Origin: Catajapyx aquilonaris
Lineage: Eukaryota
DNA length: 64,000 nt
Assembly (NCBI GenBank): GCA_000934665.2
Contig: JYFJ02000538.1
Coordinates: 1-64,000 of the forward strand
Reading direction: 5' to 3'
The position numbers and the translations under genes were made by a program. Positions 2,962-52,861 of the stretch are shown here, in pieces (position 1 is the first letter of the stretch; the number at the start of each line of letters is the position of its first letter). The notes under the pieces are model-generated. The model saw only the letters and a list, made by a program, of their open reading frames with translations, was not told the DNA's origin and ran no database searches.

Positions 2962-3186
2962 AAAGTAAATAAATAAATAAATAAAAGCTGGTCTTCCAAA
3001 ACAATTGGCAGTTCAATTACCCACTGGCATTTATTTCTGTTACCTGTAAAACATACTTCTTACAGACAACATGCAAGATGCAAGTAGGCCACAATCTACA
3101 CGATCATTCAGTAACAAGGATGGATTCAAAATCTAGTCAACTTATATGCGAAACACACTAACAAGTAACAAAATAGACTATATTAA

Positions 3187-8374: not shown

Positions 8375-8459
8375 GGCTGGCACAAAAATCGGAAGAAGGT
8401 GAGAAGACAGCAGCACGAGGAGTCTCCCTCTTTTACAACAAGTCGGCCATGATGAATTA

Positions 8460-8471
8460 TTTGGCGCGAAA
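8460..8471. promoter_or_regulatory. Overlapping double E2F site in MCM10 promoter
   Basis: TTTGGCGCGAAA matches TTTSSCGC on both strands, ~90 bp upstream of the MCM10 ATG. Confidence 0.7.
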
Positions 8472-25114: not shown

Positions 25115-26614
25115 ATGGTCAGTCGGTCTGGGTCAGTGTCGCGTGACTAAGTTCCTCTCCTGACGGGATATGACAAGTGTTACATAAAATAAATGATCTG
25201 TGGTACAGTTATGACATTATGGTAGCCACAGGCAAAGTAAGGTCATATTCTCACCAAATTGACAAATCATGTAGTCAGACACTTTGAATAATTTAGCCCG
25301 TGATAGGCCTCTAGAATTATTGCTAAAGTTCCCGCTGTATTCATTGCCTGCGCTGCTGATCAGTTTTGATAGTCGGAGGCCTTAGAAGACCCATGCAAAT
25401 ATTCAAGAGATCCTCTTTCTAAACTACCCCACCGAGGGACCAAACTCAGGATCTGGGAGATGGAAGGATGGCTCATTTATCACTACAACACCATGCTGGC
25501 CTCTCAGATGCTTAAGCTCATATAATATTTTTATTTTTTCAGTTTAAGGAATGAAAATAATTTTTCTTTCAGCCTCCCAAGAAGTCTTACAGCTACTATG
25601 ACACACCAGATGGCCACGATTGCTTCCACAAGACCTGGTACCTCTCCAAGTATGGAGCCATGGCAGGTAAAACCTTTATGATGTTACACGATTTTACGTG
25701 GTTGTATTAATGCAAATTAAGAGAAAGTCTGAGATTTTCCTAATATTTGCTTAACTGGTCCTTAGCCCTTTGCACATTGGAGTAAACGGTTTTTGGCATT
25801 TCAGGTGGAGTCTGGGCCATGTACGATGTCCTGTTCTACTCGCATCCCCAAGGGTACTTCCAGACTGCAGCCCGAGTGGGCTACAGCGTTCTCCCATTTA
25901 CATTAGCTGCTGGCACCTTTGCTGCCATGACATGTGTGTCTACATCACTGCGGGGAAAGGATGACCCTTTGAACTACATTAACGGGGGTGTAGCAGCTGC
26001 CAGCATCTTGGGAGCATGGAGTTAGTTGGCATTTTTTAACATACAGATATTATAGTTCACCCTGGCATGCAAGTATCATAAACATTGGGTGGAATTTTGG
26101 TCCCACTGCTAGTTACTGCTAACTTAGCAGCACCAGTGTTGGCAATGGTACTGCTAAGTTAGCAGTAACTAGTAGTGGGAAGAAAATTCCACCCATTGTT
26201 ATTTTCTTTTGAAACCACCTCTCTTCAGTTACTGTAGACATCCTGAAACACGTGTTAACTGTAAGTCTCCTGTAACGGATCTACTTTGACTGATTTTTTT
26301 CTTTCGGACAGATGTCTCAAAGTGCAACAATCATTATTTGGACACCTTTTGTCGCTCATGTACATTTTCATGCTCCAAAAGGATGTGCTGCTTCGCTATA
26401 AAGCATGTATTTTACAGAGCGCAGCATCATGTTGGGATTTGTTGGTGCCATTGTCCTGGGAAGTGCTGGTGCCATTAAAAAGTTTCAGAAGATTGAAGGT
26501 TGGGACTTCTACAAAGAAGGACGGGCCAGGGAGTACACGACAGTCTTTGTGGAGAAGCATAACTACACCCTGTTCAAGGATGGAACTCGGGGCTGGACCA
26601 CCGGAAAGGACTGA
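25115..26614 (+). CDS. NDUFA11: NADH dehydrogenase 1 alpha subcomplex subunit 11 (Tim17-family fold)
   Basis: ATG-only first coding exon (25115-25117, donor gtcagt), then PPKKSYSYYDTPDGHDCFHK, CVSTSLRGKDDPLNYINGGVAAASILGAW, K..EGWDF; start exon inferred. Confidence 0.88.
26087..26194. mobile_element. Fold-back MITE in NDUFA11 intron
   Basis: gggtggaattttggtcccactgctagttactgctaacttagcag ... ctgctaagttagcagtaactagtagtgggaagaaaattccaccc; ATT on both flanks. Confidence 0.7.
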
Positions 26615-27724
26615 GCAGTTTGTCACCTACAAGAGGTTCTCTTGTAGCAGTTGTCTAGGACAAGCATGTAGTATGGGTTCAGTTTGTACAAAAGAGACAT
26701 GTTAATAAAAATTGTGACTCAGTAGCAGATCTCTTGAAAGTCTGGCATGACCACAAATTGAAGAATTTTCTAGACCACTCGTCAAAAGCTCACAGAAATT
26801 ACCATGCAACCCCAAGTGCAGAAAGCTGGTCATACATGACATGTTGGGATTACGTATTGCTTTGTTAGTTTACGAGATTTGAAAGAGGGATGAACAGTTA
26901 TTTCTGACATGATACAGCCATTTCAAGGGCAGGAACCATACTGGAATTGACCTGGAAGGCACTGAGGGAAACTATAGGTCTTTGCATGATTGTTTATCCT
27001 GACATGGGGGCAACAAGCATGACACACTGGCAATGCTAAAAGCCTAAATGTTAGGATGAAGATGCAGCACTTGCTATCTGACCTTGAGGCTTCCCTGTTG
27101 GAGCCCTCAACCAATGAGTGCAAATCTTGTGCCAATATAGAGCTCCAATATGGCTCCCTGGAGCGGGGAATTACACTATAGTACCTCACTGAAGAAGTGG
27201 CATGTGATAGGTCTTGATTGATGTGATGATGGAGGAGACAGCCCAAGCAAGAGTGGTTCAAGGGATGGAGCATGGGATGGATGGTCAGACTAGTGGATGT
27301 GACCACCGCGCTGCAGAAAAATGTCAGTAGTCAGTTCATTCACCAAGGGCATGCCAAGGGTGTATGCAGGCACACTGAAATTAAACAGGTTGTATCACAT
27401 TGATACGTGACTTACTTGGTAAGGCCAATAAACATCGGACCTTCATCGCAATGAAGTATTCCTTAACTGACTTGTTCAGTCCAATCATTTGCCGATATTT
27501 CCACTTGCAGAAGCTAAGAAAGGGTATTAATCTTTTGATGTTAAACATACAAGATTAATGGTCTCAAGGTGTAATGCTATTCATTGGATATCGAGCAGCA
27601 GTAATATGCTGAGTAGCGTAATAACTTGTGACTCCTACAGGAACTTTGTACTACCATAATTTTTTTGTTCCCAATAGTGAATGGCAGTGTGGATGAAGAT
27701 GAAGATGAAGATGAGCTAGTGCCG

Positions 27725-30700
27725 ATGGCAGAGAAGAGAAATGTGGAGGAGGAGGAAGCTAGATGGGCCAGGTTTGGTCTCATGCCAATCTATAAATGCA
27801 ATCAAGGTGAGTTCACTGTCAAGATTGCAAATTAGAAAAGCTGTAACTGCTGTTGTATAATAGGAAAATCATGAGGGAACCTTCCTCGTTTTCCTTCAAG
27901 AATATAAAGAGGTATGTTCTTCCTTTAACAGAACTTCAAGAAAATGCTGCAAATATGATGCGTCTGGTATTTGCTATGTACAACAATAATGAGGACTTCT
28001 TCTTTTCTGTTGTCAATTCCATTCCACACTTCCTCTGGCGATTTGCTATGGTGATGAATAACCTAGCCATCAACATCCATTGGCAAACACCATTGCATGT
28101 ACGTTAAGTATTTTCAAGTTAATTTCAAATATTGAGGAGTCCAGTGGAGTCCATTTCTTAGGAGGCTTCCCGTTTTATGGTTAGTTCTCCAGTTTAAACT
28201 GATAAACCATACTTCTCTTTTTTTCTTTTAGCTAGCTGTGGCTATGGGATCTGTAAATATGATAAGGGAGCTCTTAAAACGTGGGGCTGACCCGACCTCG
28301 CTAACTCACAACACATACGCCACTGCATCAGACCCGACCATCTTACACTGTGCGACATTACGGACACTGGTTGATAAGCTAAAGTTTTTGCTGGAAGAAG
28401 GGGTATGTCCTGTGGACTTGACCGGCTGTGATGGAAAAACCTCACTGCATGAGGCCATAAGTGTGGGTTCCTTAGAAATGGTTAAGCTTCTACTGGACCA
28501 TGGTGCAGATCCAAGAAAAACAACTGCATCACATAGAATAATGACCGCAGGTCTTGAAGCATTATTTCCCACCGTTGAGAACCATCAGTGGAACTCATTA
28601 ATGTTGGCAGCTGCAGATGCCCAATGTGAAATAGTTGATCTTCTACTTGAAAACCACTTTCACGATGGCATTAACATGACTACAAATAATGGAGCTACAG
28701 CATTGCACTGTGCAGTCAGGTGTGTAACTGTAAAATTATAATGGGGACTCTGTGCTTCACCTCCTTCCTTTAACAACCACTTTCAGAGGTGATTTTAGTG
28801 TCATTTTAACATTTTTTCTTTGAGTATAAGGACTTCAGTGTAAGCAACTTACCTTTTTCCTCGTAGACTGTGTGACTCAGAATCACTGGACAGTCGGAGA
28901 GCCACTCTTCAACTCCTTCTGGACCATGGCGCTGATCCCAACGCCCAAGTAACAAGCAATGGCTGCACTCCTGCACATGTGATCCTTCAGGATACTAGTT
29001 TCACTGAGGATGTCAGGTTGAATCAGGTGCTGGACACCTTGGCACTGCTTCACCACTGGAAGGCAGACTTCAGCATTCAGGACATGTGTGGGAGAACGCC
29101 CCTCCACTTGGCTGTGGCCTCGGGGTTCTGTCAGTACGTGCAAGCCCTGCTGACGTATGGAGGCAGGAATGAAAAGCGAGACAGGGATGGAAACACACCA
29201 CTATTACTGGCAGCTCTGCATGGGAATTCTGACACCTTTGATCTGCTGATGCAGAGTGAATCGTTTGATATGAACACCCATGTTGTAAGTTCTTTGAATA
29301 TTTTAACAGGTGGAGACCATGTCAAGATTTAGAGATTACTAAGAAAATGGTGATACCTGAAGGTATAGTACTACATGTCCTGAACTTGTCTTCCTTTAGA
29401 ATTCTTGGGGACACAACCTGCATCATGCTGCTGTCTTGGGCTTGCATGTAAATCCAAAAGGAGCGAGCATTATTATGAATTGTGTCAATGGCCAAATTGA
29501 CCCGAAAGAAGTGGATAAACAAGGAAGGACACCCAATGATTATGCTCATCATGTTGGATTTTTGAATGACCTGGACATCACCAAATATGAACAAAGAGAG
29601 TCATCCAAGAAAGACGATCCAAATATATTTGACCTAATTCGAAGTTGCCCTGACTACAAACCCAGTGAGAATGAGACATATGATCCGGCAGTGTGCAGTC
29701 ATTACCTTCTTAGGCTCTCTGAGCATCGAAGACTTGGAAAAATACACGATGACCCAAAAATGTGTGGGCATGAGCGATGCCTTGTGGCCAAGCAGGTATA
29801 CACTATGATGACATCTCTTTGGTCAACTCGAATCACTATAAATTTTTTAGTACTGCAGTAATGGGCTGTGTACTGCAAACAATTGGAGACATCCATTACT
29901 CATATCCATTTGCAATTGCTCCTTACTGTTGCAGGTATATGACACAGTAACCAGCCTTCTGAGGTGTGCATGTGAAGTGGACCAGCGCTTCAAGGGAGAG
30001 CTGCTTCGGACAGGGAGCATCTATGAGGGCTTCCGACTGGATGCTCCAGATGAGTTTGACCTCATGTATTCATTGGAAGAACTGACTAGTGCACTTACTG
30101 TTCGGAGCAGTGATGTTCCTGGATTTGTGTATGTAGAAGTGGCGGAACCAATGAGGAGTAAATACCAGGATCTTATTGACGACCATAACTTACTGAATGC
30201 TCAGAAAGTCAAAGAATTGATGGTCCGACTCGTATGGGAGGCTGCCAACCCAGAAACATGGAGCCTTTTGCCTGGACTGCATGCCAGTTGCACCAAGTAC
30301 CACAAGAATTGTGCTGTTTGCAAACCTATGGTGAGAGACATTTATTTTTTTGTGGCCGTGCTTTTGCTGATCTGTGATACCCTGCAGGTGGATTACACAT
30401 GTCCTGGAATCCAACTTCAGCTGATTTGGATCGGCCAGGAGTACAAGTGGCTTGCAATAGATGTGGATGTTATTCCCACCCTGAAAGTTGAGGGATGGCC
30501 AGAGGAAGCAGTTAAACCACAAAACGTAGACTGCTCATTCTACTACCTGGTGATTATTATTTTCAAAATATCTTTTGAGAATCATACAACTTATCCCATA
30601 TTTTCAGCCGAGGGATTTTTCATTCTAAATGTGTCATTCTTCATGATGTATACTCCAGCTTTGAGCTTGAGCATGATTTGGTACTTGACATTTGTAGTTT

Positions 30701-31470
30701 CATTGAAATGTCTTATTCATATTAATGAAATAATGATCATTATATCGATACAATTATTAATGATAATCCCAAACAAATGACTTTTTGTTGTAGAAACTGA
30801 ATATACACTCGCAGTTTGATGCTGATCATTTTCTCTGAATTTAATGCAGGTGCCAAAATCTGAAACCACCAATCCACTGCTGTGGCGTTTGTCTTTTTCA
30901 CACCAAGAGATGCAGATACTTCGCAGCCTAAACTATGAAACCCAGCATGCCTGCTACGCTATCTTAAAGATCCTGAAGGAATGTTACCAAACCATAAATA
31001 CTCTCCACACATACGTGATGAAGTCACTGTTATTCCAATCGCTAGATCAATTCAAAGACGAATCAGATTGGTCCCCAGATCAGCTGGCTTTGAGAGTGCA
31101 GCATATCCTCCAGATCTTGTTGCAGACAGTGAGTAATGAGAAGGAATCGATTCCATCCTACTTCCTACCGAATTATCATGTTACATCAGACGGTCGCCAC
31201 CAATGGAAACAGGCTGTAACAATAGGATTCTTCAAGTCTGCAATCAAGTCCATGCTAGATGATTTGGAGCTGTTGGGGAAGGGAGAAATGTGTTGGCCTG
31301 TGAAAATGGATGCAGCATTGGAGAGTCCTGTTAATTACAGTGACACTGATTTACAAGATTTCTCAAACAGTCATGATGTTGATGATGATTATGATGATGG
31401 GTTAGTGTTGATTGACACTGATGGTGTGCGCTTGGTAGTAGGTACCCCTACTACACTTGAGGATGATTAG
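27725..31470 (+). CDS. Ankyrin-repeat + Mab-21/cGAS-like nucleotidyltransferase (cGLR) fusion, ~8 exons; 5' start uncertain
   Basis: Ankyrin motifs (QTPLH|LAVAMG, GKTSLHEA..LLLDHGADP, GATALHCAV, GRTPLHLAV, GNTPLLLAA) spliced in frame to a Mab-21 core: TGSIYEG..PDEFD, IDVDVIP, VPK..WRLSFSHQE, ILKILKE, LHTYVMKSLLF, IPSYFLP. Confidence 0.88.
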
Positions 31471-31870
31471 CGCAGGAGGCCTTAACTACTCCAACCAGTC
31501 GGAGTGGACCGAAATGGTTCAAAATTGCCCGCTAGGTAAGAAAGACACCACCTACCTCGGGTTCCAAGACTGAAGCTCAAACCCCCTCAGTGGCGGAGAT
31601 CAGCTAAAGTGCACAGGGGGAGCAATAATCTATAAGGTATATGAGTGTCCGGGGATCTGCGTCCACTATTTCCAGGGTAATAGTAGAGATTTCACTGTAC
31701 TGTATTTGGTGATTTATTTATGCAGTATCTTACACACATGAAAGTGGCAGTAACAACTGGACAGCAATGGGCATTGTTATCACATAAACCCTCACATCAT
31801 CAGCAGCTGATAGGACAATTCTTCAAAATTGCACATAACTTAGTTTACTCTTGTTGGCTGACTTACCTGT

Positions 31871-31987
31871 GGTTGCACCAACAAAATTACCGGTCCGATA
31901 GCTCCTAATGGACAGATAGGTAGACCTTTTAACATGTGCTGTTGGTCTGTTAGGAGCTATCGGACCGGTAATTTTGTTGGTGCAACC
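31871..31987. repeat. Perfect 38-bp inverted repeat (probable Harbinger-like MITE remnant)
   Basis: 31871-31908 and 31950-31987 are exact reverse complements; termini GGTTGCACCAA resemble the 2271 and 54348 elements. Confidence 0.8.
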
Positions 31988-32014
31988 AGGCATTAGCCTC
32001 AGCTGTTGGTAACT

Positions 32015-35000
32015 TTATGGTGAGCCTTTGGAATATTGTACACTAATTCCTTTTGCCTTGGCCCACTCTTGCAAGGCATTTTTGGCATCGTTTGCATTTG
32101 ACTTGTTTTTGCAGTAGACAAAGACTACATGCTCTTCATACCTGGTAAAGAAGTTGTTTATAAAATAAAAATATTAATGTGGACAAAACATTGCATGCAT
32201 AATGAAGGAAAATTAGTACTTCTTTGGTAATGTGGATGGGAAATCACATTCTGTCAAGTACGTTGCAATGTTTTCTCTGTACTTGCTGAAAAACCGAGCC
32301 CGAAAGATTGGGTTCTCATTATTGTTCCCATAGTCAAAGTGACCTGAAGTGACAACAAGGTCATTTGCTTGGAAGTTGACCTCAATATCTCGCTTGACTT
32401 TTTCTGCATCCTGAATGTAAACAAAAAAAAAATATGTAGGGCTACTGGACAACATTATGATTCAACTTACTGCAATAAAATGTCCCTCTCAAACACTAAC
32501 CTCCATTTCTTCACTCTCCATCCGAAACTTTCCTATGAAAGGATAGAACTGCCTCCTCTGAATACGCTCTAGGATTTCCTTAGCCTCAATACACCCATTC
32601 CCATGAAGGATCTGATGAAATGTGTAGTCGCTAAGTTTTTCATACATGGACATGTCATTTGAAGCTTCGCTGAATTTATAACTGAAACAAGAGAAAATTT
32701 TTCTAAATTAGACATCTATACAGTATACATGAACAGAATTTAATTATTTTAAAATGTTGTTTTGATTACTAGTGTGAAGTTTACTAATGGGGTTGACAGG
32801 TTAAACCATGTCTACATTAATGCAGACAAGGTTAAGAAAGTTTGTCACTGCATGCCAGATAGCAGGGTGTACCAGCACAGCAACATTGAAGGCGACATTG
32901 GTGTATGATAATATATTATGTCACAAGCATGGTCTTATAATACTAAGGTCTGGTCACTACCTCTTATCGCCTGCCAGGGCGTTTTGCATGAGGTGCTCAC
33001 TTGAGATTGCCATGAGACCGCCTTAGTTTCACTGCTACATTATGTGACGACCCTACCGGACCGCGCTGAACTTAGGTAGAAGGGAAGCAGCTACATGCGG
33101 GCCCAACACGGCCACTGGCGATCATGTTGGGTCCCCCAATGTAGCGCTTCCCTTTTGTACCTATGAAGTTCAGCAAAGTCCGGTAGGGTCACCACATAAT
33201 GTAGCAGTAAAAGGCGGTCTCATGGCGCTCTCAAGTGAACACCTCATGCAAAACACCCCTTCAGGCGATAAGATAAGATTATAGGGGTAGTGTCCGGGGG
33301 TTGGTCAGAAGCAAAAATTCAGAATTTGAGAGAACACTGCTGTTGGTTGAGGCATGTCAATGCCGTCCCATACCACACTTGAGTCAAGAATTCCAGCTTG
33401 TGTAAGTATTGCCAGATAATGGCATGTCCTTCAATGACTGCCATCATCACTGGCATACCAACTAAGTTCTTGAAGTGCTCACATATAATTTTATGCCCCC
33501 CATAAAAATTCAAACACCTTTCTACATTCAGCCTCCATTTTGACATACTACTGCTACCCTATGTCTGTGGTGATGAAATCTGTTGAATATTGGTGGGATG
33601 GTGTTTTCTCATACCATTAAATTTTGTATAAAACTTCCTACTGATTAAAAAATGCATGCATTACTTTCAGACTTCTCTAATATCCCCATCAAAATATTTT
33701 AAAGGTCGCAACCAATTTTTTACTATTACATCGAGATCCACACCTACCATTCATTGGCAGCGATGAATGCATCCAAAATCATTTCCTCGATAACTTTGCA
33801 CACCCGATGTTGATATGCATGCCGATGCAGCTTTTCCCTCATGGCATACATTTCAATCAGATTGTTGACTTCCTTGTTGCGGTATGTTATGTGCCCATTG
33901 TTGACACGTGAGAATTTCATGATTCGAGTGTAATCAAAAGATGTCTTGATATTCAAGTGCAAACCATCCCTAAGGAGGTAATCCCACTTGTCCACATCTA
34001 TGCCTGTTTCTTTGTTGCTGACAATCTGGAACAAATACCAATTGTCAGAAGGATACTCACAAGTAAGGTGTACAATAGTAACAACATGGGAACTCACCTC
34101 ATACAGGTAAGATTTCTCAGGCCTCAGCATTGGCTTGGTTTCATTCCGCCATATCAACTCTCCAATGAACTCCATGTCATCATTTGTGAGAATCCAGTAT
34201 GGCCTTTCTCTCAGATTGTTTTGGTCAACAATATGTGTGAACATTTCAATAGAGAACCTTTCATGCTGTGAAAGCAATTTACACCTATTAGAGATCACTT
34301 TCTGGGTTAATGGGAGCTTGTCACAATGTTTGAATCCAAAAACAAACTGCCAAAAAAACAGTGCAGCCTGGACCCTGGATGGGGAGAAATAATTTTGCAC
34401 ATCATGGGACTTGCTGTTTGGTCCCAATGGAGGATTTCCAATACATTTCCATTACATTAACATTTGTCAAGCATAAAGCGGCATTTACATGCGAGCCATT
34501 TGACAAGCGAAGTCATCGCGAGTGACGTAACAAATATTTTGCTTGAGGTGAAAGTAACAATCGATTTTCGCCTCAAACAATACTGGTTACTCAGGTTACT
34601 CAGCATTGTTATCGCCGGTGATCAAATCACTCACATGTAAAGGCAATGAATCTCAATTCCACTTTAGACAAGTTTCACTGCATTTTCTTATTGGTAAGCA
34701 CATGGAGAATTGCATTACTACCGCTTGATGCACTGCAACAACAGAAGGGGTGATATAAGGACAGTTTATTCCAGTAACTAAGTTAATGAGAGTGAACAAT
34801 CACAATTTGTGAATGCAACTAACTATTGCTTTTCTCCAAATTAGTTTCTGCAGTGAAAAATACAAAACCTCTCCCCATTCTACCCACTTGGACTGTAGAT
34901 GTGGCACCTCCCTACATGTGACGTATGCTTACCTTCCAGTTGGTGTCTGGTTTCACCCTGAGCATGAACCTTTCCCACAGGTGTGAAAAGGGACCATGGC

Positions 35001-35909
35001 CCAAATCATGGCAAAGACCTGCTACCTGCAGGCAGAGAATGTCTTTCTCCGTGATTCCCAATTCAGGTTGCTGGCGCTGCAAGTGCATTCCGTATTCTCC
35101 TGCCAGGTAACATACACTGAAAATTATTGCAAGAGCACATTACTAATTAGGCTGATATGTGTGAGAGGTAGACAAAGTTTCACTTTGTATTTCTCATGTA
35201 CACAAGAGTCAGTGCAAAATTCCTCCTGACCATCACACTGATTTTAGCAATTTCTACTATATTTTTCTCCACGCATGATAAAATGACATATCTATGAGTA
35301 TAAATTACCAATCTCCTATTTTGTGGCTCATTTCAATTCACTTTAGTCTCAAAATTAGTTAATCAGATCTGCCAAATCTCCATGCAAGGGGCATAAGCTG
35401 TAGATAATCTTCAGGTTATGTCATAATGGTTCAGTTTGTAAACAGCTTGTCAGATAATAAGCTCATGCTGGTTCAACTGTCAAAAAGAAAAGTTTTTGAA
35501 TTTTTACTGTCAAGTAAGAAGTGGTCACATGTTTTCCCCCCTTCAGAAAAGTTTCTCATCAGTACTTCCATCAGAAGCAAGAAGACCGTAACTCAAATAC
35601 TAGTTTTTGAGTTAGAGTCTTCTTGCTTCTGACGGCAGAGTAGATGTAAGCTTGCACAAAGGGAGCTATTGAAAATCATGCTGGAACACCGCTCTGAAGT
35701 GGATTTTATTTTGGTACGTGAAGCATTAAAATCTGTAGCTACCCAATGCTGTGCTCAAATCTGTTGTGGGATGCTCCGGGATAGACATAGTAGGCACTTC
35801 CCAGCTGCTTCAGGTCACGTAGTCGTTGAAATTGAATGGTGTCCACTATGGCCATGCAGATGCAGGGTAGCTCAATATGGCCATGGACACTGTCATTGAT
35901 TATCTTCAT
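32015..35909 (-). CDS. SAMHD1: SAMHD1-like HD-domain dNTP triphosphohydrolase (no SAM domain seen), multi-exon
   Basis: [91 protein letters not shown]; stop TAA 32015-32017. Confidence 0.92.
32963..33272. repeat. ~310-bp imperfect fold-back element in SAMHD1-like intron
   Basis: cttatcgcctg..gttttgcatgaggtg..ctgctacattatgtg..ccctaccgga pairs with tccggtaggg..cacataatgtagcag..cacctcatgcaaaac..caggcgataag along the whole length. Confidence 0.8.
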
Positions 35910-38812
35910 GCTGGTCACTCTCTCTAGAGACGGGAAAAAACACATCTCACATTCATTCAAATTTATCAGCAATAGTAATAATGCTACAAAATTAACTCGA
36001 AGGTGTGTTAGATTTGTGTAACTTATTTTAATGGCCTCATTTATCTTTTGCTACAACATAATTACAGTAGTGTTACAGCCAGAGTCTGCCGGAAGTCACA
36101 TTTCCTGAAATGATTCTCATGTGATAATCTGTTATCTAGTTATTATCACAGAAATTGTGCTGGTGGTGCAAGTCCAAAACATAGTCTTCCGCAACAACTA
36201 TATGTTGCTCTGATTCCAACTTGTAATTTTTCACTACAACACCACGTGCAAGCATTACCGGTATCAGGTATCAAACTCAAATTATTTACATCCAGTATTA
36301 TGCTGTCCATTTACTACCAATGTATAGCACGTATTCTCTCATACATTCCTCCTCTGGATATCTGCATATTATGCAGAGTTGAATGTTTCATGAACATGCC
36401 GCAACGTATGGAGGTACTTTTGCAATATTGGCAATTTCCATAATTACACACACAACAACCCCACATGCGTACCAACCTCTAGTGACATGCATGCATTGCT
36501 GGTACTGCATTGTTGGAACAGAATGCTAAGCAAGCCTATTGAGCTTGACACCACCACCAGAGGCCACAAATCAACACTGACAGATCCCAATCAGTACGTT
36601 ACCCCCTCTGCTCTTATCACTCACTTATTATCGTTTATCACCAGCAGCCATGTGGGGCCATATATGCAATGAGACTGACCGGGTAGTGCAGCAATGACCT
36701 AATAAAACATGCTATTGAGTCACAAATTGAACTATCGTCATCTGGGGGGGTCTTTGCCCTCCGAAGAAGTTGCCCTTCCTTTTACAGCCACACTGCTGAT
36801 ATGCCAAGCTTGGTGTACTTACCCGGCACACTCGACGAATGCGGTGCTACGTACAATGCCTGACCGCCGAGTCTTTGTTTACAGCAACGGAACAGAACGA
36901 CTGACTCATACTCCAGACGGGTAGGCGCGACAGGACGAGGCGCCGACAGGAAACGAGACACTTACCGGGAGCTTATTATCCTGAAAGTTAGACAACCAAA
37001 TGGCCTTTGTCTCACGTGCTCTGCTCTTGTCCTCGGGATCAATTCGGCAACCTCTGTACGTGACGTCGGTGATTAGCATGTCAACAAATGCAAATACGTC
37101 ATTTGACAATTATTTGCGTCGAAGTAAAATGAAGTTTGTATGTCGCCGTTGCAAAAAAAATAACTGCCGCAGATGGGTGGATGGACACGCTTCCCACGTC
37201 TAGGACGAAGGCAGGAGGCATGGGTTATCAAAATAATCTGTATAGATGTGCATAATTTTTTAAATAATCATAATAACAAAAAAATATTTATAATCCAAAA
37301 TAAAATATTCAGTGTCATTATAATACATCATTCACGTGCATTTCAACTGATGGCTATACTTGGACAGAGTGCAAGTTAATTATGTAATTAATTATTGCTT
37401 GCCCGAGTGCTGCTTATTGCCATATTGTTGAAGGCGCCAGTACAAAGACCAATATAACAATGGCGCATTGTTGCATTAATAAAATTAGTTTCCATGTGCT
37501 CTTACATACAAAACCCCCTTCGTCTTCCCCAGATGGCGCATACCGGCATACGTGCGGTAACGTGGTAATAATCACGCAGTCACAAACATGTCACAAAATA
37601 GTCTCAGAGGCGGGCAAGGAGGATATTGCAACGTCTCAGGCTACTAATAAGATAAGAGTAGGCCTAATCATTTTCGAGTGGCCCCTGCCTCCAGGTCGGA
37701 TAGGCGTCCTTTGTAATGAACTGTCTGTGGCCAGTACGTCGCGACATGTAGTCATACCTCTCGACATGTGTCCCTTTGCAAATAGGCTAGATGGTGTATA
37801 TAGGCCTAATCCGGCTCTCAAATGATTCCGCTTACAACTGGATAACATTGCTTACAAATTACAATCATTAATTTTTGTGTTAAATTTTCTACCTAATGTC
37901 ATGCACCATTGCTGCCATTTCTAAGTTGCAATCAGTAACAATAGCAACAAATAAGACGAAGCTATAAAAAAGCGGCATGATGTTCTGTTGCATATCATAT
38001 ATATTCGTCAACGGTGCCATTCAATGCCCTTGTGGAATTTCGGCATCTACTTGCTTGTCACGTAAAATGCAATCCACGAATTCTTGTACTTCCGTCGTAT
38101 AGAGTTAGTTATGCGCATAGTGCTTATCTGTGTTTTCCAGAAAGCAAAAGGCAACAGACTGAAACTGCTGTTTTCCAATAAAGGAATGCACCTTTTTATC
38201 GCAAGTGGAGTAATGTCTCCTTGTCAACAGCAAATACCTTCCATTCCTCAAAAGACGACTCGACCTGGCCAGAATGTAATGATAAATAAGCAGCAAAGCC
38301 CGCAATTACGATAAATCAACGATTAAAAACATGGATATATATGCGAGTTGAGTTATTAATCCCCCACATGTATCATGACACTTTGTAAGAAAGTTTACAT
38401 TTCGCTTCTTCTGGCGTTGGTGTTTCAGTGTACAGGTATACTTGCGCAATTTTTTACAAATGTAATTAATTAATCGATTAATTACTTTATTGCATGTACC
38501 AGGTGGCCTAATCGACCCCTTAACGTACGATTGTCCCTGGGACCTGGAATCTTGCCAGGCTTGGTGTGAATGCCAAGGTTACAGTGCCGGTCGGTGCATG
38601 GGATTCATGTGGTCCATCTGCCGATGCGGAGCTGCGGATGTTTGAGATGCCATACTCAGCTGTTGTTTGACGTTATTATAGTCGTGCCCTTGCTGGAGAA
38701 AAACAGCGTGCTTGGAGTTGCTACAATACCAGGGTCGGTCTTAAAAGGAGGTTGTTGAAGGTTCCTTCGTCAGTTGCGAGTGACAAGAGCAGCAGTATAT
38801 AGTCACAGTGAG

Positions 38813-39070
38813 ATGTCCAAAATGGGTCTGGTCTACCGCTTCGTGGTCTTCTTGTGCCTCATTGCCGTGCTTAGTGGTAAGTATGGTGTTGCCGACGCGA
38901 CGGTACCGAGCAGTGGGATGACATGTATATTGTGTGTTGCAGAAGTGGCTGCTGACCATGGGTGTCCCTGGAGTCCCGTGGAATGCGCCGAGTATTGCCA
39001 GCTGCTGACCAGACGTGCCGGTACTTGCACCGGACTCTTCTGGCTCTCCTGCACTTGTATGGGGAAATAG
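38813..39070 (+). CDS. CS-alpha-beta defensin 1 (signal exon 38813-38876, exon 2 38943-39070)
   Basis: Hydrophobic signal peptide, phase-1 66-nt GT-AG intron, mature DHGCPWSPVECAEYCQLLTRRAGTCTGLFWLSCTCMGK with C-x6-C-x3-C-x9-C-x7-C-x-C. Confidence 0.85.
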   Translation: MSKMGLVYRFVVFLCLIAVLSGKYGVADATVPSSGMTCILCVAEVAADHGCPWSPVECAEYCQLLTRRAGTCTGLFWLSCTCMGK

Positions 39071-39692
39071 ACACAGATTTGCATGTAAGTCGCAATGTTG
39101 CATGTAAGCAGCAACAAGTTTGTAATTCAAGTTTGTAATTACAGGACAGATTCATCTAGCGACTTCCGCGATTGACTATCCAGCGATGACCAACTTGTGA
39201 GATGTGACCAATAGGACAGCATCTAATAGTCTCACGATTGTACTCAAGTAATGAAGACATGCCAGTTGGATAGCTGTGAACTTAGATGAATCAATAAATT
39301 TTTGTCCATAACATGTAGTCCCAAGTGTTGTGCTTATTTTAAGATCCTTGCATTCACAGATCATACGGTTTACTACAATGCATTGTGTGTACCGAGCGTA
39401 TTGTACAACGAATTGTTCTTGGAGACAGAAGCGCGGGCCAATTGTTTCCTTTCTAGACCAGCAACAATTAGCAACTGAATAAGACGCTCAAGTACGCATC
39501 ACAGGGCATTCTCACACGAACAATGAAAAGTAATCAAACGAGATACAATTATTTAGTACTATAGCATACCCTTTACTTTGCGTTCATGCTTCCGTTGGAG
39601 TTGTGTTACAATCTAATCAACTGTTCACAATTACTGAATAAAATGACGGTGTTACTCTGATTAGACAATTGCAACAGGGCGGCGTCCTCTAT

Positions 39693-39699
39693 TATAAAA
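39693..39699 (+). promoter_or_regulatory. TATA box of defensin 2
   Basis: TATAAAA ~85-90 bp upstream of the ATG at 39783. Confidence 0.5.
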
Positions 39700-39782
39700 C
39701 AGGAGGTTGGTGACAACACTCTTGCACTTCACATCCACACTTTCCAGTTCTCTCCCAAACTGGAACATTCTGGTAGAAAACC

Positions 39783-40523
39783 ATGCTGAAGCTTTGGATG
39801 TCCATCTTGTTCCTCTTGGTCGTACTCTCAGCAGGTAAGCATACCATTTAATTATGGTACCTTTAAAATTACTGGCAACAGATAGTCCAAACACTGTCTC
39901 AGTCGCTATCATAAAAGTTTCTAGATATTATAAAGTTCCTCTTCGCGAATTTCGTTTTGGTACATGCTTTTTTGTATAGGTTTAATCTATGACGTATTTT
40001 TAAATCCCGGTAGAGATGACTCACAACTAAAAACTCATATTTCAAAATTGGTTGAACAGACATGTATCCGGATTCAACTTGATGAGTATACCATACATTC
40101 AACTTTCTTCTCAACATAACTGTTCAATATACAGGGTGCGAAAATTTAACGTAGGTATATCATCATACGATGGTAGGCAGGTTCTAGAGTATCTAGAGTG
40201 TTCTAGAGTCTAGACGATCATTTTAAGTAGGCCTATAGTTTTCGCAGCCTGGTTACCGAGATAATGTGGTTCAAACATAAGGTATAAGATATCCTGGCAG
40301 GTATGCGTCCCTCCTGACCTCCGCGACCCGACATTTTTCATTTATACAGCAATTAAAATAATTATATAATAATTATTGCCTTTGCACATTTCCAGTGTCC
40401 GAGGCAGGCTTTGGGTGCCCAACAAATGAACAGAAATGTTACCTACATTGCAAGGCCATTCCAGGATACAAGGGAGGCTACTGCGACATCTGGACAGCCA
40501 GGCTTAGGTGCATCTGTTTTTAG
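39783..40523 (+). CDS. CS-alpha-beta defensin 2, GFGCP type (exons 39783-39834 and 40396-40523)
   Basis: MLKLWMSILFLLVVLSA/VSEA signal split by a phase-1 intron; mature GFGCPTNEQKCYLHCKAIPGYKGGYCDIWTARLRCICF; absent from ORF track. Confidence 0.92.
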
Positions 40524-40706
40524 CATAACTTATCTGCATTTTCTGTGAGAAAAATGTCCTAGTCTAACTGTTGTATATACCTGCAGTCAATTAAAGAAAG
40601 TCATAATTCAATGTAAAATCAGCATATCATATAGGTTGATTTTTGTGCCAATAATTTTTTTTTGCAAATCTAGGCAAAAAAACACCAAGGTCATATGCCA
40701 TGTAGC

Positions 40707-40757
<51 letters not shown>
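40707..40757. repeat. (TGA)17 microsatellite
   Basis: Perfect trinucleotide run. Confidence 0.95.
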
Positions 40758-41112
40758 CACAGTCGTAGTGTTTGTTTACGTATAGCACAGATCTTTATTA
40801 TTTTTCGTCATGTATTACATTTGCTGATTTTGAGGTTGAAGGTAGGGTTCATGAGTATAATTTTATAATTCACGACACTTCAGACCCTCTTATACGGTCA
40901 TACCTTTTCTCTTGGTCCAAGGTAGAGAAGGAAGTTAAAATTTGCTTCAGTATATTGTTAGAAAATTTGGAAAAGACCCAACCAAGCAAAGGTAGTGGGG
41001 ACAGGATTTGAACCTCCACTTGCTTTACTAACCTGCTGTGGCATAATCACAAGTCCACCTTGCCCCCTTATACAGTTTTATAGATGCAATAGTAAGTTTC
41101 TTCCATTACAAA

Positions 41113-42418
41113 TTATTTCTCCCGTGGATGAAAAGATGGCTGTACACAGTATGCAGGACCATTAAGGCATCTTCTGCAGCACTTTAAGTCACCTGGACAA
41201 GTGTAGTCACCGATACAGCTTGCTTCCAGCCCTGGGCGAAGAACTGTGCCAGCAGGAAGGGTCTCCAATGGAGGGCAAATCCCAGGTTTCCATCCTGGCA
41301 TAATATTCAGATGTTAAAATTACGTTCATCACTGATAATGGCACTAAAGCAAGCCTAGCATTTACGGTACCTCCGCACTGGTATTTGGGGCAGCAGTCAT
41401 GATCATCTTGAAAACTCAAACACGATGGATCCTCAGGAGCTTCTGGGCAAGTCTCAATTTGACATGACCACAATGCTGGAAATGTTACATTATATAGTGA
41501 TGTTTCTGCTCCAATAACTTGCAACAATCAAATAGCCTATTTGTGTTTAAGAAATAATGGGTTTACCTCCTTTTCCACAATAGTACTGCTTGCAACATGA
41601 TTCTGAAGGAGAAGTGGATGCCCAACAGGTTCGGTTGTATGGTGGTGGTGGACATTGGTGACCTAAGCATGGGTCAGGCTCTGACACCAAAGGACAATCC
41701 ATCCAAGGTGCCAGCAAAACCAAAGCATTTGAACTAGCTGCTTGGCCTGGGCACAGCTTCAGTGGGCCTGATCCTAACTGAACATTTCTGCGCAGCACAT
41801 AACCCTGACCTTAATTAAGAGGAGAATTAGGTCCAAATCTTGCAGGCCAAATTGCACTTATTAACTTACGAGGACACAGGGCCATTGTATAAGATGGTTC
41901 CCAAGGAAACTTGGCAAAAACACAGTTGCGATTCAGAGCAGCTGTCATCTCTGCAGGAAGAAGCTCTTCTGCAGACTCTTCATCAGCTCCTTCGGAGTCC
42001 ACCAAATCAGATTCAGTGACTCGTTCAGGAAAACCAAATTTAGGATTCCATCTGCTTGTTCTGGCTTCAATTCTTTCCATAACAGTCCGTGAATCAGGCA
42101 CCTGTGATTCAAACCATCTACTCTGACCACTACACACGAAGAAGCCGTATAGTTCAGACTGAAGTAGGAACTACATACAACCTGAACTCCTTCATGCCCT
42201 TGACTGGCATCCTGTGGCCTATGTCCATGTTCCGCATTCCCTGCTGATCTTTGAAGATGCCTAACATCATAAGATGGCCAGTTCAGTTGCGAAAACGGTC
42301 GTGAAAATTCACTGATGGTCCTGTCGCGTCCAAAACGAAGGACATCCCAATCATCCTCTGTTGAAGACGCTACCAGAAGAGCAGTGGCAATAGCTGCCAC
42401 CAGTGCTAAGGAATCCAT
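41113..42418 (-). CDS. Secreted cysteine-rich protein with C-terminal WAP-like domain, ~5 exons
   Basis: Signal MDSLALVAAIATALLVASS; two CP..C..CC..YxC modules; terminal KPGICP..SCIGDYTCPGDLKCCRRC..YCVQP. Confidence 0.7.
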
Positions 42419-42677
42419 TTCAAGAAAGGCTGAGAGCTCCCAGAGCATTTCTATTTCATAGTTCTTGCTTGCTGATGCTGTACATTCTAACCAGGTAATT
42501 GATCCAAGTTCAGAGAGAAGGAATTTGAATGACAACATCCCCACACAACGTGACAATAGCTGACATGATCCTTACTCTGCAACACAGTCAATAACCCTTC
42601 AGTCATACCCCAGGATATGTGCATGACAATGACAAATAATTCAGGAGATCAAAGCTGATTTATTTAGCCTCATCTCA

Positions 42678-43889
42678 TCATCCCCGACAATCAGCCAGTG
42701 CCTGACATTTATTTGCCCATTGTTGGAGAGAAATGGGCAGAGAATCTATCACACGCTTTTGCTTGAACACAGCCCATAGTGAAATGTCAGCCAACGATGG
42801 CTGCTTGCCTTCAGTCAGCCATCCCCACCTCCCAATAGACTTTTCTGCTTCTTTGGCTGCAGTCTTCCACCATCCACTTCTGATTCTTGATTGCTCCGCT
42901 ATGTCCAACCAATAGTCTACTTGTGCAGCGCTTTCTGGCCCCTTGCATTCATACTTCAGCAACTCAGGGAATTTTCTGGATCCACCCAGGCAGCTGGATT
43001 CACACAATCGGACCAGGAATCGCACCAAGACAGACTCACCCTTTAGCGTAAGTCTCTGAGGGTGTACTACAACCTGCAATAATGTAATTACCTTGGGTCA
43101 ATATTATACTTGTATTAAGGCTGGCTTACCTAAGAAAAACAGAGCTTTGTTGGAATTGACCTGAGTAACCTCCAAATAGTTTATGACTTCTGGTTCTTGC
43201 TCATAAATGAACAGCAATTGTCATAGTTTTTCTAAAGTTGTCCTGTTCAACAGTGTGGCACATTATTATCAGTATTATGAACACACAAAAATTGGGAACA
43301 ATTGGTTTAGATAATACTGAGGGTATGCTCAAAATCATTCTAGCAAATTTTCACGGAAGGTAAAATCAGGTATTAGCCAACGTAAAAGTAAATGTGACAA
43401 TTTCTATGAAGACTCTTACGCGTACTAGATTTTCTTCGCACTTGCTTGACCGAAATAAAAACACTATAATCACTGTACCATATACTAAAATTATAAAAAT
43501 TATAACAGCAAACCTGTGGTTCAAGCCCAACTCGTTTCCAGATGAGCCTAATTCTGACTTTCATTGGCCCATTAGTGGTGCTGGGAATGTCCAGGAAGTG
43601 TTCCAACTTTTCAGGGAGCTCCTTGATAGATGAGTGCATATGTGTATATGCAACTATGGGGTAGACTTGTGCTATTTTACGAGCAAGGACCTGCAAGACG
43701 TACGGAGGGTGATGTGGATCTGCAAACACAGTAAAATCAGAGGGCAGGTCTGCCCTCGCGCAACCCTCAGCAGAGAGTAATTGGTGTCGTAAAGCGGAGA
43801 CTTGTTCAGCCAATGCCTTAGCTCGCTCAAACACTGAATCCCAATTCTCTTGTAGGGAAGATAATAAAGCTGCAGTGTTGTCCCCATGC
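42678..43889 (-). CDS. AIMP2: Aminoacyl-tRNA synthetase complex-interacting multifunctional protein 2 (two exons; no own start exon found)
   Basis: DFTVFADPHHPP, THMHSS..LPEKL, LIWK, LKGESVLVRFL, VDYWLDIA, WL..PSLADISLW GST-like motifs; exons 43889-43514 and 43073-42678. Confidence 0.87.
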
Positions 43890-44088
43890 CTGAAACAAAT
43901 TCATTGTAGTCAAGAACAGGAGTGAACAAAAAGTAGAAGCAGGATAACAAATCACAAGTGCTTTAATTTTGAAACAAAAAATTACAACCATGCAAATAAT
44001 GTGCAAAATTGTGTAACAGAAAATACTGCCACATGCAACTAAGATAACAAAGGATCAAGAGAAATGTCATTGAAAACACTGAAGGCAG

Positions 44089-47726
<3,638 letters not shown>

Positions 47727-48053
47727 CTTGGATGGAGTGGCAGCCGCATTCGAAAGCCCATCATCACGAAAAAGATAGCGAATATTCAGTTTAAAATATT
47801 TAAAAATACAAAATAGCCCCGTGTTTAAATGAGCTATAATACCAACTTATATTTAGTAAATGAGCGTGCATTATTAAATTTTGTAATCAGAGATTCCGGG
47901 TCGTCATTGGCCAATCACGAGCCATGCTCTCAGTATCGTATATGTTATTACGGTATCCGTACTTTGCTTCTCTGTTGGGTTCACTTCACTGGTTTACTTA
48001 TCTTTTAATTACTCTCCATTTAGCTGGTGGTGCTTGGAACAAACAGACGCAAC

Positions 48054-48434
48054 ATGCCCCCTAAGCTCAAGGCTGCTAAGATTCTTCATGTCACATTCGT
48101 ACTTGAGAGGAACCAGCAAGAGTCTGAAGCGAAAGGTGACACCTCTGCGGTCGCTGCAAGCACTGAACCTGCAGCTACTTCTGAAGGCACTGGTGATCGT
48201 GCAGGTGAAATGAAGAAGTATGTGTGCGAGTACTGTGACACGACGTATCCACACGAGTCCTTGCTGTGCTGGCATATGAAGGTGGTGCACAAGATTAAGG
48301 TGCATGAGGACTCGTGCATCATTTGCCAGGAGCATAATTCCTACAGTGGGTCACTCAGTGTGACCTTGGATTCTGCAGAAGGGTCACTGCTGTGCTTAGA
48401 AGATAAGGAAATAAACGAGGTGGAGTTTGATTAA
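48054..48434 (+). CDS. Small protein with a single C2H2 zinc finger, divergent from FARSA
   Basis: YVCEYCDTTYPHESLLCWHMKVVH; acceptor just upstream, donor gtaagg 7 nt after the stop. Confidence 0.5.
   Translation: MPPKLKAAKILHVTFVLERNQQESEAKGDTSAVAASTEPAATSEGTGDRAGEMKKYVCEYCDTTYPHESLLCWHMKVVHKIKVHEDSCIICQEHNSYSGSLSVTLDSAEGSLLCLEDKEINEVEFD

Positions 48435-50723: not shown

Positions 50724-52861
<2,138 letters not shown>

Follow-up and report, generated by a model that had tools for sequence, protein, structure and literature searches.

Our analysis shows that a 15-kb stretch between NDUFA11 and AIMP2 holds one cGAS-like gene, one SAMHD1-like gene, three defensin genes and one WAP-domain gene, as identified by Pfam and PDB-sequence searches. 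All six of these consecutive genes belong to immune-type families, compared with none of the nine other recognised genes in the 64-kb window (the whole stretch of DNA that was analysed). A preliminary description had reported five consecutive immune-family genes, two of them defensins. Its family assignments are upheld by the Pfam and PDB-sequence matches, but the gene count is six, and three defensins are found at 38375-40523 on the + strand. In the reading that we favour, to which we give about an even chance, the locus is a lineage-specific neighbourhood of fast-evolving immune-family genes in an old housekeeping block of an arthropod-like genome, with six independently transcribed genes and no mechanism linking them.

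Layout of the locus and its flanks

The six genes are separate transcription units, which occur in convergent, divergent and tandem orientations. The cGAS-like receptor (cGLR) gene on the + strand and the SAMHD1-like gene on the - strand are convergent, and a repeat element separates their 3' ends. This element (31866..31992, no strand assigned) reads as an inverted-repeat, MITE-like sequence; in X1, DNA word depth is very high in the bin that contains it, and contigs have loose ends at 31993/31995. The SAMHD1-like gene (-) and defensin A (+) are divergent, with ~1.4 kb between them. Defensin C and the WAP gene point towards each other, the latter lying ~280 bp past the defensin C stop as measured to the end, at 40804, of a contig from one public run, X5. 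At one junction of the cGLR gene and seven of the SAMHD1-like gene, the X5 contigs skip GT..AG introns exactly, and in this one sample they lie over the cGLR and SAMHD1-like genes, the bin of defensins A and B, and the exon with the WAP domain. Coverage in a single sample carries no information on co-induction.

Housekeeping genes flank the cluster on both sides. On the left, NDUFA11 (25572..26614, + strand) matches the PDB sequence of NDUFA11 (E 4.7e-17) and has a weak Tim17-family match in Pfam; X5 contigs skip its GT..AG introns at 25663/25802 and 26020/26418. On the right is a FARSA::AIMP2 fusion gene (42678..47726, - strand) with a tRNA-synt_2d match of 1.5e-54. Its AIMP2 part, at 43889-42678, matches Thioredoxin_16 in Pfam (3.3e-15) and AIMP2 in PDB (1.2e-4). 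The identity of this flank as AIMP2, proposed previously, is thus correct, but the AIMP2 part lacks a separate start and is joined to FARSA by in-frame splicing: at the X5 loose end at 43889 the letters are identical to the window from 44093 onwards.

The remainder of the window is occupied by non-immune families, namely MCM10, GDI, an Ig/FN3 gene, FARSA, a C2H2 gene, acyl-CoA dehydrogenase, DUF3522 and ubiquitin E1. No second copy or fragment of the cGLR or SAMHD1-like gene is present in the 64-kb window.

The cGAS-like and SAMHD1-like genes

The cGLR candidate is an ANK-repeat plus Mab-21 gene (27725..31470, + strand), modelled from Pfam matches and splice sites as a 909-aa protein encoded by eight exons (27725-27806, 27932-28098, 28232-28719, 28867-29284, 29400-29795, 29935-30330, 30388-30549 and 30850-31470). 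The + strand ORF pieces at 28232-31470 match ANK (E 3.8e-23 and 5.2e-18), Mab-21 (1.4e-9) and Mab-21_C (1.5e-11) in Pfam. In particular, both the Mab-21 nucleotidyltransferase and the Mab-21_C helical domain, which together define the cGLR class, are present. The 57-nt intron is confirmed by the X5 joint 30329/30387, exon 4 is matched by an X5 contig piece at 28865-29284, and the bin depths agree with the exon model.

The nucleotidyltransferase core (29935..30549, + strand) carries GS, D-E-F-D and I-D-V-D acidic motifs. The core exon matches human cGAS in PDB (E 1.8e-5), with GS and D-E-F-D aligned to the GS and N-E-F-D of cGAS. The third acidic motif, I-D-V-D, falls opposite the I-D-V-D of cGLR1 in a weak alignment (E 0.41), so that its residue is the least certain one in an active site that, judged from these motifs, appears complete. 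In PDB, the C-terminal exon is closest to MiD51 (3.5e-6), with cGAS second (8.9e-5). The GS..[DE]h[DE]h motif is kept in 108 of 124 library relatives, and the ANK + Mab-21 architecture recurs in 15 of 19 scanned relatives, which were hand-picked from ranks 1-39 of the 124 matches. The core is only 33-35% identical to the best library relatives, and the nearest named ones are jellyfish and lungfish proteins.

ANK-cGLR fusions have already been described by Li et al. (2023), for example in the coral Stylophora pistillata. The candidate has the same order of domains as the fusions reported there, with N-terminal ankyrin repeats followed by the Mab-21 nucleotidyltransferase and then the Mab-21 C-terminal domain, and it likewise carries GS and [DE]h[DE] motifs. 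A difference lies in charge: the nucleic-acid-sensing cGLRs noted in that paper are basic, whereas the catalytic core of the candidate is acidic (pI 5.16). An acidic core (pI 5.2) combined with a long ankyrin arm suggests a protein or other non-nucleic-acid trigger. We propose that the ANK-Mab-21 protein would be a cGAS-like nucleotidyltransferase with a complete active site, which would respond to such a ligand by producing a nucleotide signal.

The SAMHD1-like gene (32015..35909, - strand), a candidate HD-domain dNTPase, has a 431-aa CDS that was defined from PDB SAMHD1 matches, the Pfam HD match and X5 joints. Its coding exons (35909-35743, 35116-34933, 34265-34098, 34025-33748, 32681-32500, 32409-32217 and 32138-32015) are supported by X5 joints at all seven junctions, including the joint 35923/36823 to a 5' non-coding exon (36823..37000, - strand, the upstream end at 37000 being approximate). 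The HD domain is matched in Pfam at E 9.1e-7, and SAMHD1 in PDB at 4.9e-30 and 3e-22. All tested exons match, and the H..HD..D residues, which we take to bind metal, align with human SAMHD1, as does an N-terminal stretch that presumably corresponds to the allosteric site.

The preliminary description was right about the HD domain and the SAMHD1-type sequence of this gene, but there is no SAM domain. An N-terminal SAM domain is ruled out by the spliced upstream exon, which has an in-frame stop and no ATG; the first ATG lies 5 residues ahead of the HD-domain match. Compared to human SAMHD1, the 431-aa protein lacks both the SAM domain and a counterpart of the vertebrate C-terminal regulatory tail. 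Over the part tested, identity to the best matches reaches only 42-43%. Among the named matches, many of which are arthropod, SAM-less SAMHD1-like genes are frequent, with several in one species. The conserved residues suggest that the protein would act as a nucleotide-regulated dNTP triphosphohydrolase. At the level of sequence, neither enzyme has lost its catalytic motifs. Among the papers listed by our literature search, we found none on an immune role of SAMHD1 in arthropods or on its antiviral activity in invertebrates.

The defensin and WAP-domain genes

The defensin genes lie in tandem, and each begins with a separate ATG and has a signal exon followed by a phase-1 intron. Defensin A (38375..38645, + strand) has its signal exon at 38375-38435 and its mature exon, with seven cysteines, at 38503-38645. 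The corresponding exons of defensin B (38813..39070, + strand; six cysteines) are at 38813-38876 and 38943-39070, and those of defensin C (39783..40523, + strand; six cysteines, GFGCP start) are at 39783-39834 and 40396-40523. Defensin C matches Pfam Defensin_2 at 1.1e-9 and mussel MGD-1 in PDB at 1.2e-8. The Defensin_2 scores of A (16.9 bits, E 0.0061) and B (18.6 bits) are under the gathering cut-off of 20.4 bits. In PDB, A matches 'Arthropod defensin' 2ru0 (E 1.2e-4), and B matches scorpion BmKDfsin3 (4.1e-5) and oyster defensin (1.7e-4). All three genes encode the cysteine framework C..CxxxC..GxC..CxC, as do MGD-1, oyster defensin, BmKDfsin3 and arthropod defensin. Known CS-alpha-beta defensins differ from A, which is anionic (pI 4.05) with an additional, seventh cysteine, and from B, which is also anionic (pI 5.53); C is cationic (pI 8.27).

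Defensins A and B are identical at 12/34 positions (35%; E 6e-8), and B is similar to C at E 0.003. The common gene structure and detectable similarity point to tandem duplication. The three genes would be old tandem duplicates encoding secreted CS-alpha-beta peptides, only one of which is cationic.

The gene for the WAP-domain secreted protein (about 42418-41113, - strand) has as its last exon (~41294-41113) a WAP domain, whose Pfam match (5.5e-7) spans the full profile, positions 1-41 of 41, and scores 30.2 bits where the cut-off is 20.8; an X5 contig covers 40804-41189. This exon has seven cysteines versus the eight of its class; the eighth may sit in the preceding candidate exon. Upstream on the - strand, the candidate exon chain includes two Cys-rich modules (~41746-41567 and ~41475-41371), neither of which matched a Pfam family, and a signal-peptide-like start at 42418. 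That position had been given as the end of the cluster, and it is indeed the ATG of a signal-peptide-like ORF. With its Cys-rich modules ahead of a C-terminal WAP domain and its signal-like start, the gene may resemble crustin-type antimicrobials, in which a Cys-rich region is followed by a C-terminal WAP domain. The product may be a secreted cysteine-rich inhibitor or antimicrobial.

Possible origins of the cluster and bacterial parallels

In the regions upstream of the six genes, we counted 0 occurrences each for the kappaB, Relish and STAT motifs and one for ISRE, against 0.26 expected, which is no enrichment. No 7-mer, 8-mer or 9-mer is shared by 5, 4 or 3, respectively, of the six regions. 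This promoter test is weak, as it covers only six regions whose start sites are not mapped and uses motifs taken from flies and vertebrates; at this level, the shared regulation expected of a defence island was not seen. Among 80 SAMHD1-like metagenome loci from unnamed organisms, none has a Mab-21, defensin or WAP neighbour, a weak test because only 14 of the 80 have at least 5 kb of flank. No paper describing cGLR-SAMHD1 linkage in animals was found among those listed by the literature search. The evidence that could be tested does not favour coupling, and the defence-island idea of the preliminary description is neither supported nor refuted.

In a lineage-specific neighbourhood of independent genes, each gene would act by its own family's mechanism. 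The genes would lie together because lineage-specific genes were gained and kept at a single permissive site, or simply by chance, and the locus would not be an operon-like defence system. By our own estimate, which was not computed, a genome in which a fraction f = 0.04 of ~20,000 genes belongs to immune families would contain N*f^4, or ~0.05, runs of four independent immune units. Such a run would therefore be rare in one genome and expected many times when many genomes are scanned. A counterpoint is that four unrelated immune-type units (cGLR, SAMHD1-like, defensin array and WAP) in a row, with none elsewhere in 64 kb, are unusual. The run would be more unusual if this animal has the 1-5 cGLRs that most animals typically carry, according to Li et al. 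(2023).

It is conceivable, if somewhat unlikely, that only the effector half is a unit, with the three defensins and the WAP gene forming a co-regulated antimicrobial-peptide array next to unrelated cGLR and SAMHD1-like genes. In animals, genes for antimicrobial peptides often form tandem arrays, and such an array would account for the one gene structure and detectable similarity across the defensins and for a WAP gene within ~280 bp of the defensin C stop. However, the defensin and WAP upstream regions have no motif in common, the anionic defensins A and B are atypical for membrane-active peptides, and the WAP gene runs on the other strand from a separate start. We consider it distinctly unlikely that the locus as a whole corresponds, in an animal, to a defence island, with selection keeping a sensor (the ANK-cGLR), a dNTP-depleting restriction enzyme and secreted effectors next to one another and with their joint induction perhaps following from the signal that the cGLR itself makes. 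In mammals there is a functional link between SAMHD1 and cGAS-STING, and in bacteria relatives of the two occur in the same defence islands. The unbroken immune-type run (6/6 genes, versus 0/9 others in the window), the apparent retention of catalytic motifs in both enzymes and the X5 contigs over four parts of the locus in one sample are consistent with this explanation. The separate units, mixed orientation, lack of common promoter motifs and absence of linkage in all 80 metagenome loci argue against it, although the promoter and metagenome tests are weak. So do the populous architectures to which both the ANK + Mab-21 and the SAM-less SAMHD1-like proteins belong, and a literature search that listed no paper on animal cGLR-SAMHD1 linkage or on an arthropod immune role of SAMHD1.

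Finally, we regard it as very unlikely that family names mislead in part, so that some of these genes are wrongly labelled 'immune' and the run of true immune genes is shorter than it appears. The SAMHD1-like protein would then be a housekeeping regulator of dNTP pools, the WAP protein a protease inhibitor or structural protein, and the anionic defensin-like peptides non-antimicrobial. WAP domains are found in many non-immune proteins, and the two Cys-rich modules of the WAP gene are without a Pfam match. SAMHD1-like exon 2 is very near human SAMHD1 (E 3e-22), as expected for a conserved core enzyme, and there is a single copy in the window; the charge of defensins A and B also fits. However, the missing SAM domain and the 42-43% identity to the best matches would also fit a SAMHD1-like gene that is a diverged paralogue and not the core orthologue, and defensin C is a textbook cationic defensin.

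The locus, read as our favoured neighbourhood of independent genes or otherwise, offers an ANK-cGLR with an acidic core as a candidate non-nucleic-acid sensor, a candidate SAM-less SAMHD1-like enzyme, a three-member defensin array with two unusually anionic members, and a clean set of coordinates for co-induction work. The existence of defence islands in eukaryotes is posed as an open question by Culbertson and Levin (2023; PMC10732462). An arthropod-lineage defence island between NDUFA11 and FARSA::AIMP2 is in our judgement improbable; in it, an ANK-cGLR that senses protein, a dNTP-depleting enzyme without a SAM domain, a diversified array of defensins and an effector of the WAP type would make up one selected, induced module. 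If true, no earlier animal example would be known in which relatives of a CD-NTase and of a dNTPase lie together as they do in bacteria. If the linkage were conserved and the genes co-induced, animals, like bacteria, could keep unrelated defence genes together, and neighbourhood could be used to find new animal immune genes, which PMC10732462 treats as open.

The locus resembles bacterial defence islands, with their CBASS CD-NTase operons and dGTPase/dNTP-depletion genes, in that distant CD-NTase and dNTPase relatives adjoin here in the company of other defence-type genes. However, the bacterial arrangement is an operon, whereas promoter, introns and orientation are individual to each gene of the cluster, and the cluster is framed by conserved housekeeping genes instead of the hallmarks of mobile elements.

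Gene content and flanks of the locus

Pfam and PDB-sequence searches recovered all of the named families between 27.7 and 42.4 kb, and no family was assigned to 13 of the 25 ORF pieces profiled with Pfam. The preliminary description had listed five consecutive immune-family genes between NDUFA11 and AIMP2. This observation is real, with corrections. The run itself stands in Pfam and PDB matches, which also uphold the families of the ankyrin and Mab-21 gene and of its defensin and WAP neighbors, but the count is six genes, with three defensins. The proposed SAMHD1-like homolog has HD and SAMHD1 matches but no SAM domain, and both flanks are matched, although AIMP2 is not a standalone gene, being fused to FARSA. 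The six genes are contiguous, and no others of immune families occur among the ~15 genes in the window. They are the candidate cGAS-like receptor (cGLR) gene (27725-31470, + strand), the SAMHD1-like gene (CDS 35909-32015, - strand), defensins A, B and C (38375-38645, 38813-39070 and 39783-40523, + strand) and the WAP gene (about 42418-41113, - strand).

The window is gene-dense eukaryotic DNA with short spliceosomal introns and a GC of 0.38-0.50. Elsewhere it contains MCM10, GDI, an Ig/FN3 gene, FARSA, a C2H2 gene, an acyl-CoA dehydrogenase, a DUF3522 protein and a ubiquitin E1 (3 of the 15 pieces in this survey of the remaining window had no family). Neither a further copy or fragment of the cGLR or SAMHD1-like gene nor an additional recognizable Cys-rich peptide gene was found in the window, and an Rfam search of it gave 0 matches. 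Origin by horizontal transfer or as a mobile island was rejected, because each of the six carries spliceosomal introns or a eukaryotic signal exon, and their GC resembles that of the flanks.

The left flank, NDUFA11 (25572-26614, +), has a PDB match at 4.7e-17. In particular, it matches 8esw and 8b9z, which we take to be fly complex I, at about 5e-17, versus about 6e-7 for mammalian chains. In the right flank, FARSA::AIMP2 (42678-47726, -), the AIMP2 part matches Thioredoxin_16 in Pfam (3.3e-15) and AIMP2 in the PDB (1.2e-4). Splicing joins the last coding exon of FARSA in frame with the exons of AIMP2 (44196-42678, - strand, junction 44093|43889), as given by a contig of the public sequencing run X5 whose loose end at 43889 equals the window from 44093 onwards. 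The FARSA stop codon, TAA, sits within the GTAAC donor and is read only when the intron is retained, and no separate ATG opens the AIMP2 part. Among the 120 FARSA matches listed, 4 have a PF01409 plus PF18569 architecture (Daphnia, a water flea; a fig wasp; and two unnamed entries), and a literature search for a FARSA-AIMP2 fusion found nothing on point. These listed matches are about 77-85% identical (48% for one multi-stretch match) and span fishes, a hemichordate, an annelid, insects and a sponge, and thus do not resolve the taxon. An arthropod source is plausible, though short of proven: it is favored by the NDUFA11 match to 8esw and 8b9z, by the shrimp and HD-only arthropod matches of the SAMHD1-like protein (see below) and by the FARSA plus AIMP2 architecture in the water flea and fig wasp entries.

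Two neighbor pairs bear on the age of this neighborhood. FARSA lies near the acyl-CoA dehydrogenase, which has a glutaryl-CoA-dehydrogenase-like translation (44092-52700), and MCM10 lies near GDI (3400-12100). The human counterparts of both pairs are presumably also linked (at 19p13 and 10p, respectively), and this linkage suggests that the immune genes may sit within an ancient housekeeping linkage block.

Gene models, transcript evidence and repeats

X5, whose kind is unrecorded, contains 0.39 of the sampled words from 27600-37599 and was mapped on 25500-44000. Its contigs skip GT..AG introns and thus behave as transcript-derived. In the SAMHD1-like gene, they give the - strand junctions 36823/35923, 35743/35116, 34933/34265, 34098/34025, 33748/32681, 32500/32409 and 32217/32138, and the resulting CDS encodes 431 aa. 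An upstream spliced exon has an in-frame stop and lacks an ATG, so that the protein begins five residues ahead of the HD-domain match (- strand, Pfam 9.1e-7) and lacks a SAM domain. Against solved SAMHD1, the exons score E 4.9e-30 and 3e-22, and the alignment with human SAMHD1 spans the H..HD..D motifs plus an N-terminal stretch that we take to be the allosteric nucleotide site, with residue roles assumed from the human enzyme. From these aligned elements, the protein would likely be active as a regulated dNTPase. Ranked by full-query identity, decapod shrimps give the best matches (42-43%), and the arthropod matches commonly have the HD domain only; a literature search on SAMHD1 in shrimp found nothing on point.

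The cGLR gene model encodes 909 aa, and its + strand ORF pieces match ankyrin repeats (E 3.8e-23 and 5.2e-18), Mab-21 (1.4e-9) and Mab-21_C (1.5e-11) in Pfam. X5 gives a 57-nt in-frame intron at 30329/30387, and a contig piece at 28865-29284 coincides with exon 4. The X5 bin depths agree with the exon model; in bin 28585-29201, for example, 6.13 x 470/617 = 4.67 is predicted and 4.67 is observed. X5 has eight joints beyond those listed; the other cGLR introns, as well as those of the defensin and WAP genes, come from splice-site models. X5 depth in bin 40308-40924, which contains defensin C exon 2, is wholly explained by the WAP 3' contig, and that in the bin of the putative first WAP exon (42418-42266) is explained by the AIMP2 contig; neither part has X5 cover of its own, which counts neither for nor against it.

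One gene structure is common to the three defensins, consisting of a signal-peptide exon, a phase-1 GT..AG intron (67, 66 and 561 nt in A, B and C) and a mature-peptide exon. The defensin C ORF (40362-40523, +) is unambiguous, with matches to Defensin_2 at 1.1e-9 and to mussel MGD-1 at 1.2e-8. The ORFs of defensins A and B (38466-38645 and 38759-39070, +) score 16.9 and 18.6 bits, under the Pfam cut-off of 20.4, and match solved defensins at 1.2e-4 and 4.1e-5, respectively; the two are identical at 12 of 34 positions (E 6e-8). On the - strand, the WAP domain covers the full Pfam profile at 30.2 bits versus a cut-off of 20.8, and the last exon of its gene is clear (about 41294-41113). Upstream of this exon are two Cys-rich modules and a signal-peptide-like start at 42418, and the exon chain joining these parts is ambiguous. 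Four pieces of the WAP gene searched against Pfam at E up to 10 gave no match besides the WAP domain, and the two Cys-rich modules gave no usable match in the ESM Atlas.

A near-perfect inverted repeat, MITE-like and high-copy, occupies 31866-31992, where the convergent cGLR and SAMHD1-like genes face each other, between their stop codons, and DNA word depth in its bin is about 80-fold above neighboring bins in X1, another sequencing run. From 31471 to 32060, AATAAA/ATTAAA is absent on the + strand and occurs once on the - strand, at 31713. Together with an X5 contig spanning 31272-31899, these hexamer positions indicate that the 3' UTRs of the two genes may overlap in antisense. Three further stretches of bins, located in SAMHD1-like introns and around NDUFA11, are very deep in X1 (32904-33520, 34138-34754 and 25500-26733; 3,000-9,000 versus about 35-40). 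Their depth suggests that the compact locus contains high-copy short repeats. Triplet repeats coding for acidic runs lie just upstream of the cGLR ATG, (GAA/GAT)n at 27682-27723, and between defensin C and the WAP gene, a long (GAT)n at 40698-40765; both were left out of read mapping as repeats.

Co-regulation, linkage and chance

The locus had been read as a co-regulated, defence-island-like arrangement. Its orientation is mixed, and the genes form six separate units: cGLR and SAMHD1-like are convergent, SAMHD1-like and defensin A divergent, the defensins tandem, and defensin C and WAP convergent. No kappaB, Relish-type or STAT motif occurs in the six upstream regions, each 168-600 nt long, and ISRE occurs once versus 0.26 expected. 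No 7-, 8- or 9-mer is common to 5, 4 or 3 of these regions, respectively. This is a weak test, since it depends on unmapped transcription start sites and on motifs taken from other animals.

For linkage, 80 SAMHD1-like metagenome loci (377 kb), kept from 96 confirmed relatives, were searched by tblastn with two query sets, the 124 relatives of the Mab-21 core and the translations of nine exons from this locus. None of the 80 has a Mab-21, defensin or WAP match, but the power of this test is low because flanks are short (at least 3 kb in 28 loci and at least 5 kb in only 14) and the source organisms are unidentified. Two loci match two of the queries, solely in their N-terminal portion outside Mab-21.

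Immune genes are known to cluster where gene turnover is rapid. If ~4% of roughly 20,000 genes are assumed to be immune-type and the defensin array is counted as one unit, we estimate that ~0.05 four-unit runs would be expected per genome. Such a run would be unusual for a single genome, yet expected repeatedly across very many windows. In our literature search, no paper describing animal cGLR-SAMHD1 linkage came up, and nothing on point on animal defence islands; eukaryotic defence islands are posed as an open question in a passage of PMC10732462. The limited tests run lend no support to a co-regulated defence-island-like locus, which is neither supported nor refuted. The individual genes belong to known kinds, and their arrangement is a lead.

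Comparison with known cGLRs and defensins

When the cGLR core exon is aligned with human cGAS, its GS loop and D-E-F-D fall on the GS and N-E-F-D of cGAS, and the I-D-V-D that follows matches identical letters in cGLR1, weakly (E 0.41). A word-index homologue search with the core gave 0 of 2692 candidates at E 0.001 or better. HMMER against 1.84 billion representatives gave 124 relatives at E <=0.001, six of them at <=1e-10 and none at 1e-30. The best is 35% identical, so the protein itself is absent from the searched library. GS..[DE]h[DE]h is kept in 108 of the 124, and 15 of the 19 relatives that we chose from ranks 1-39 and scanned have the ANK plus Mab-21 architecture. Names, available on 2 of 8 clusters, are those of one jellyfish and one lungfish protein.

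Passages of Li et al. (2023; bioRxiv 10.1101/2023.02.22.529553) describe ANK-cGLR fusions, 1-5 cGLRs per species in most animals and >200 in some bivalves, and a high pI for dsDNA- or dsRNA-sensing cGLRs. Unlike the latter, the Mab-21 core here is acidic (pI 5.16, charge -12.5), from which we infer a non-nucleic-acid trigger, received probably via the ankyrin arm. The mature peptides of defensins A (38503-38645) and B (38943-39070) are anionic, with pI 4.05 and 5.53, respectively, and A carries a seventh cysteine; compared to antimicrobial CS-alpha-beta defensins, both the charge and the extra cysteine are atypical.
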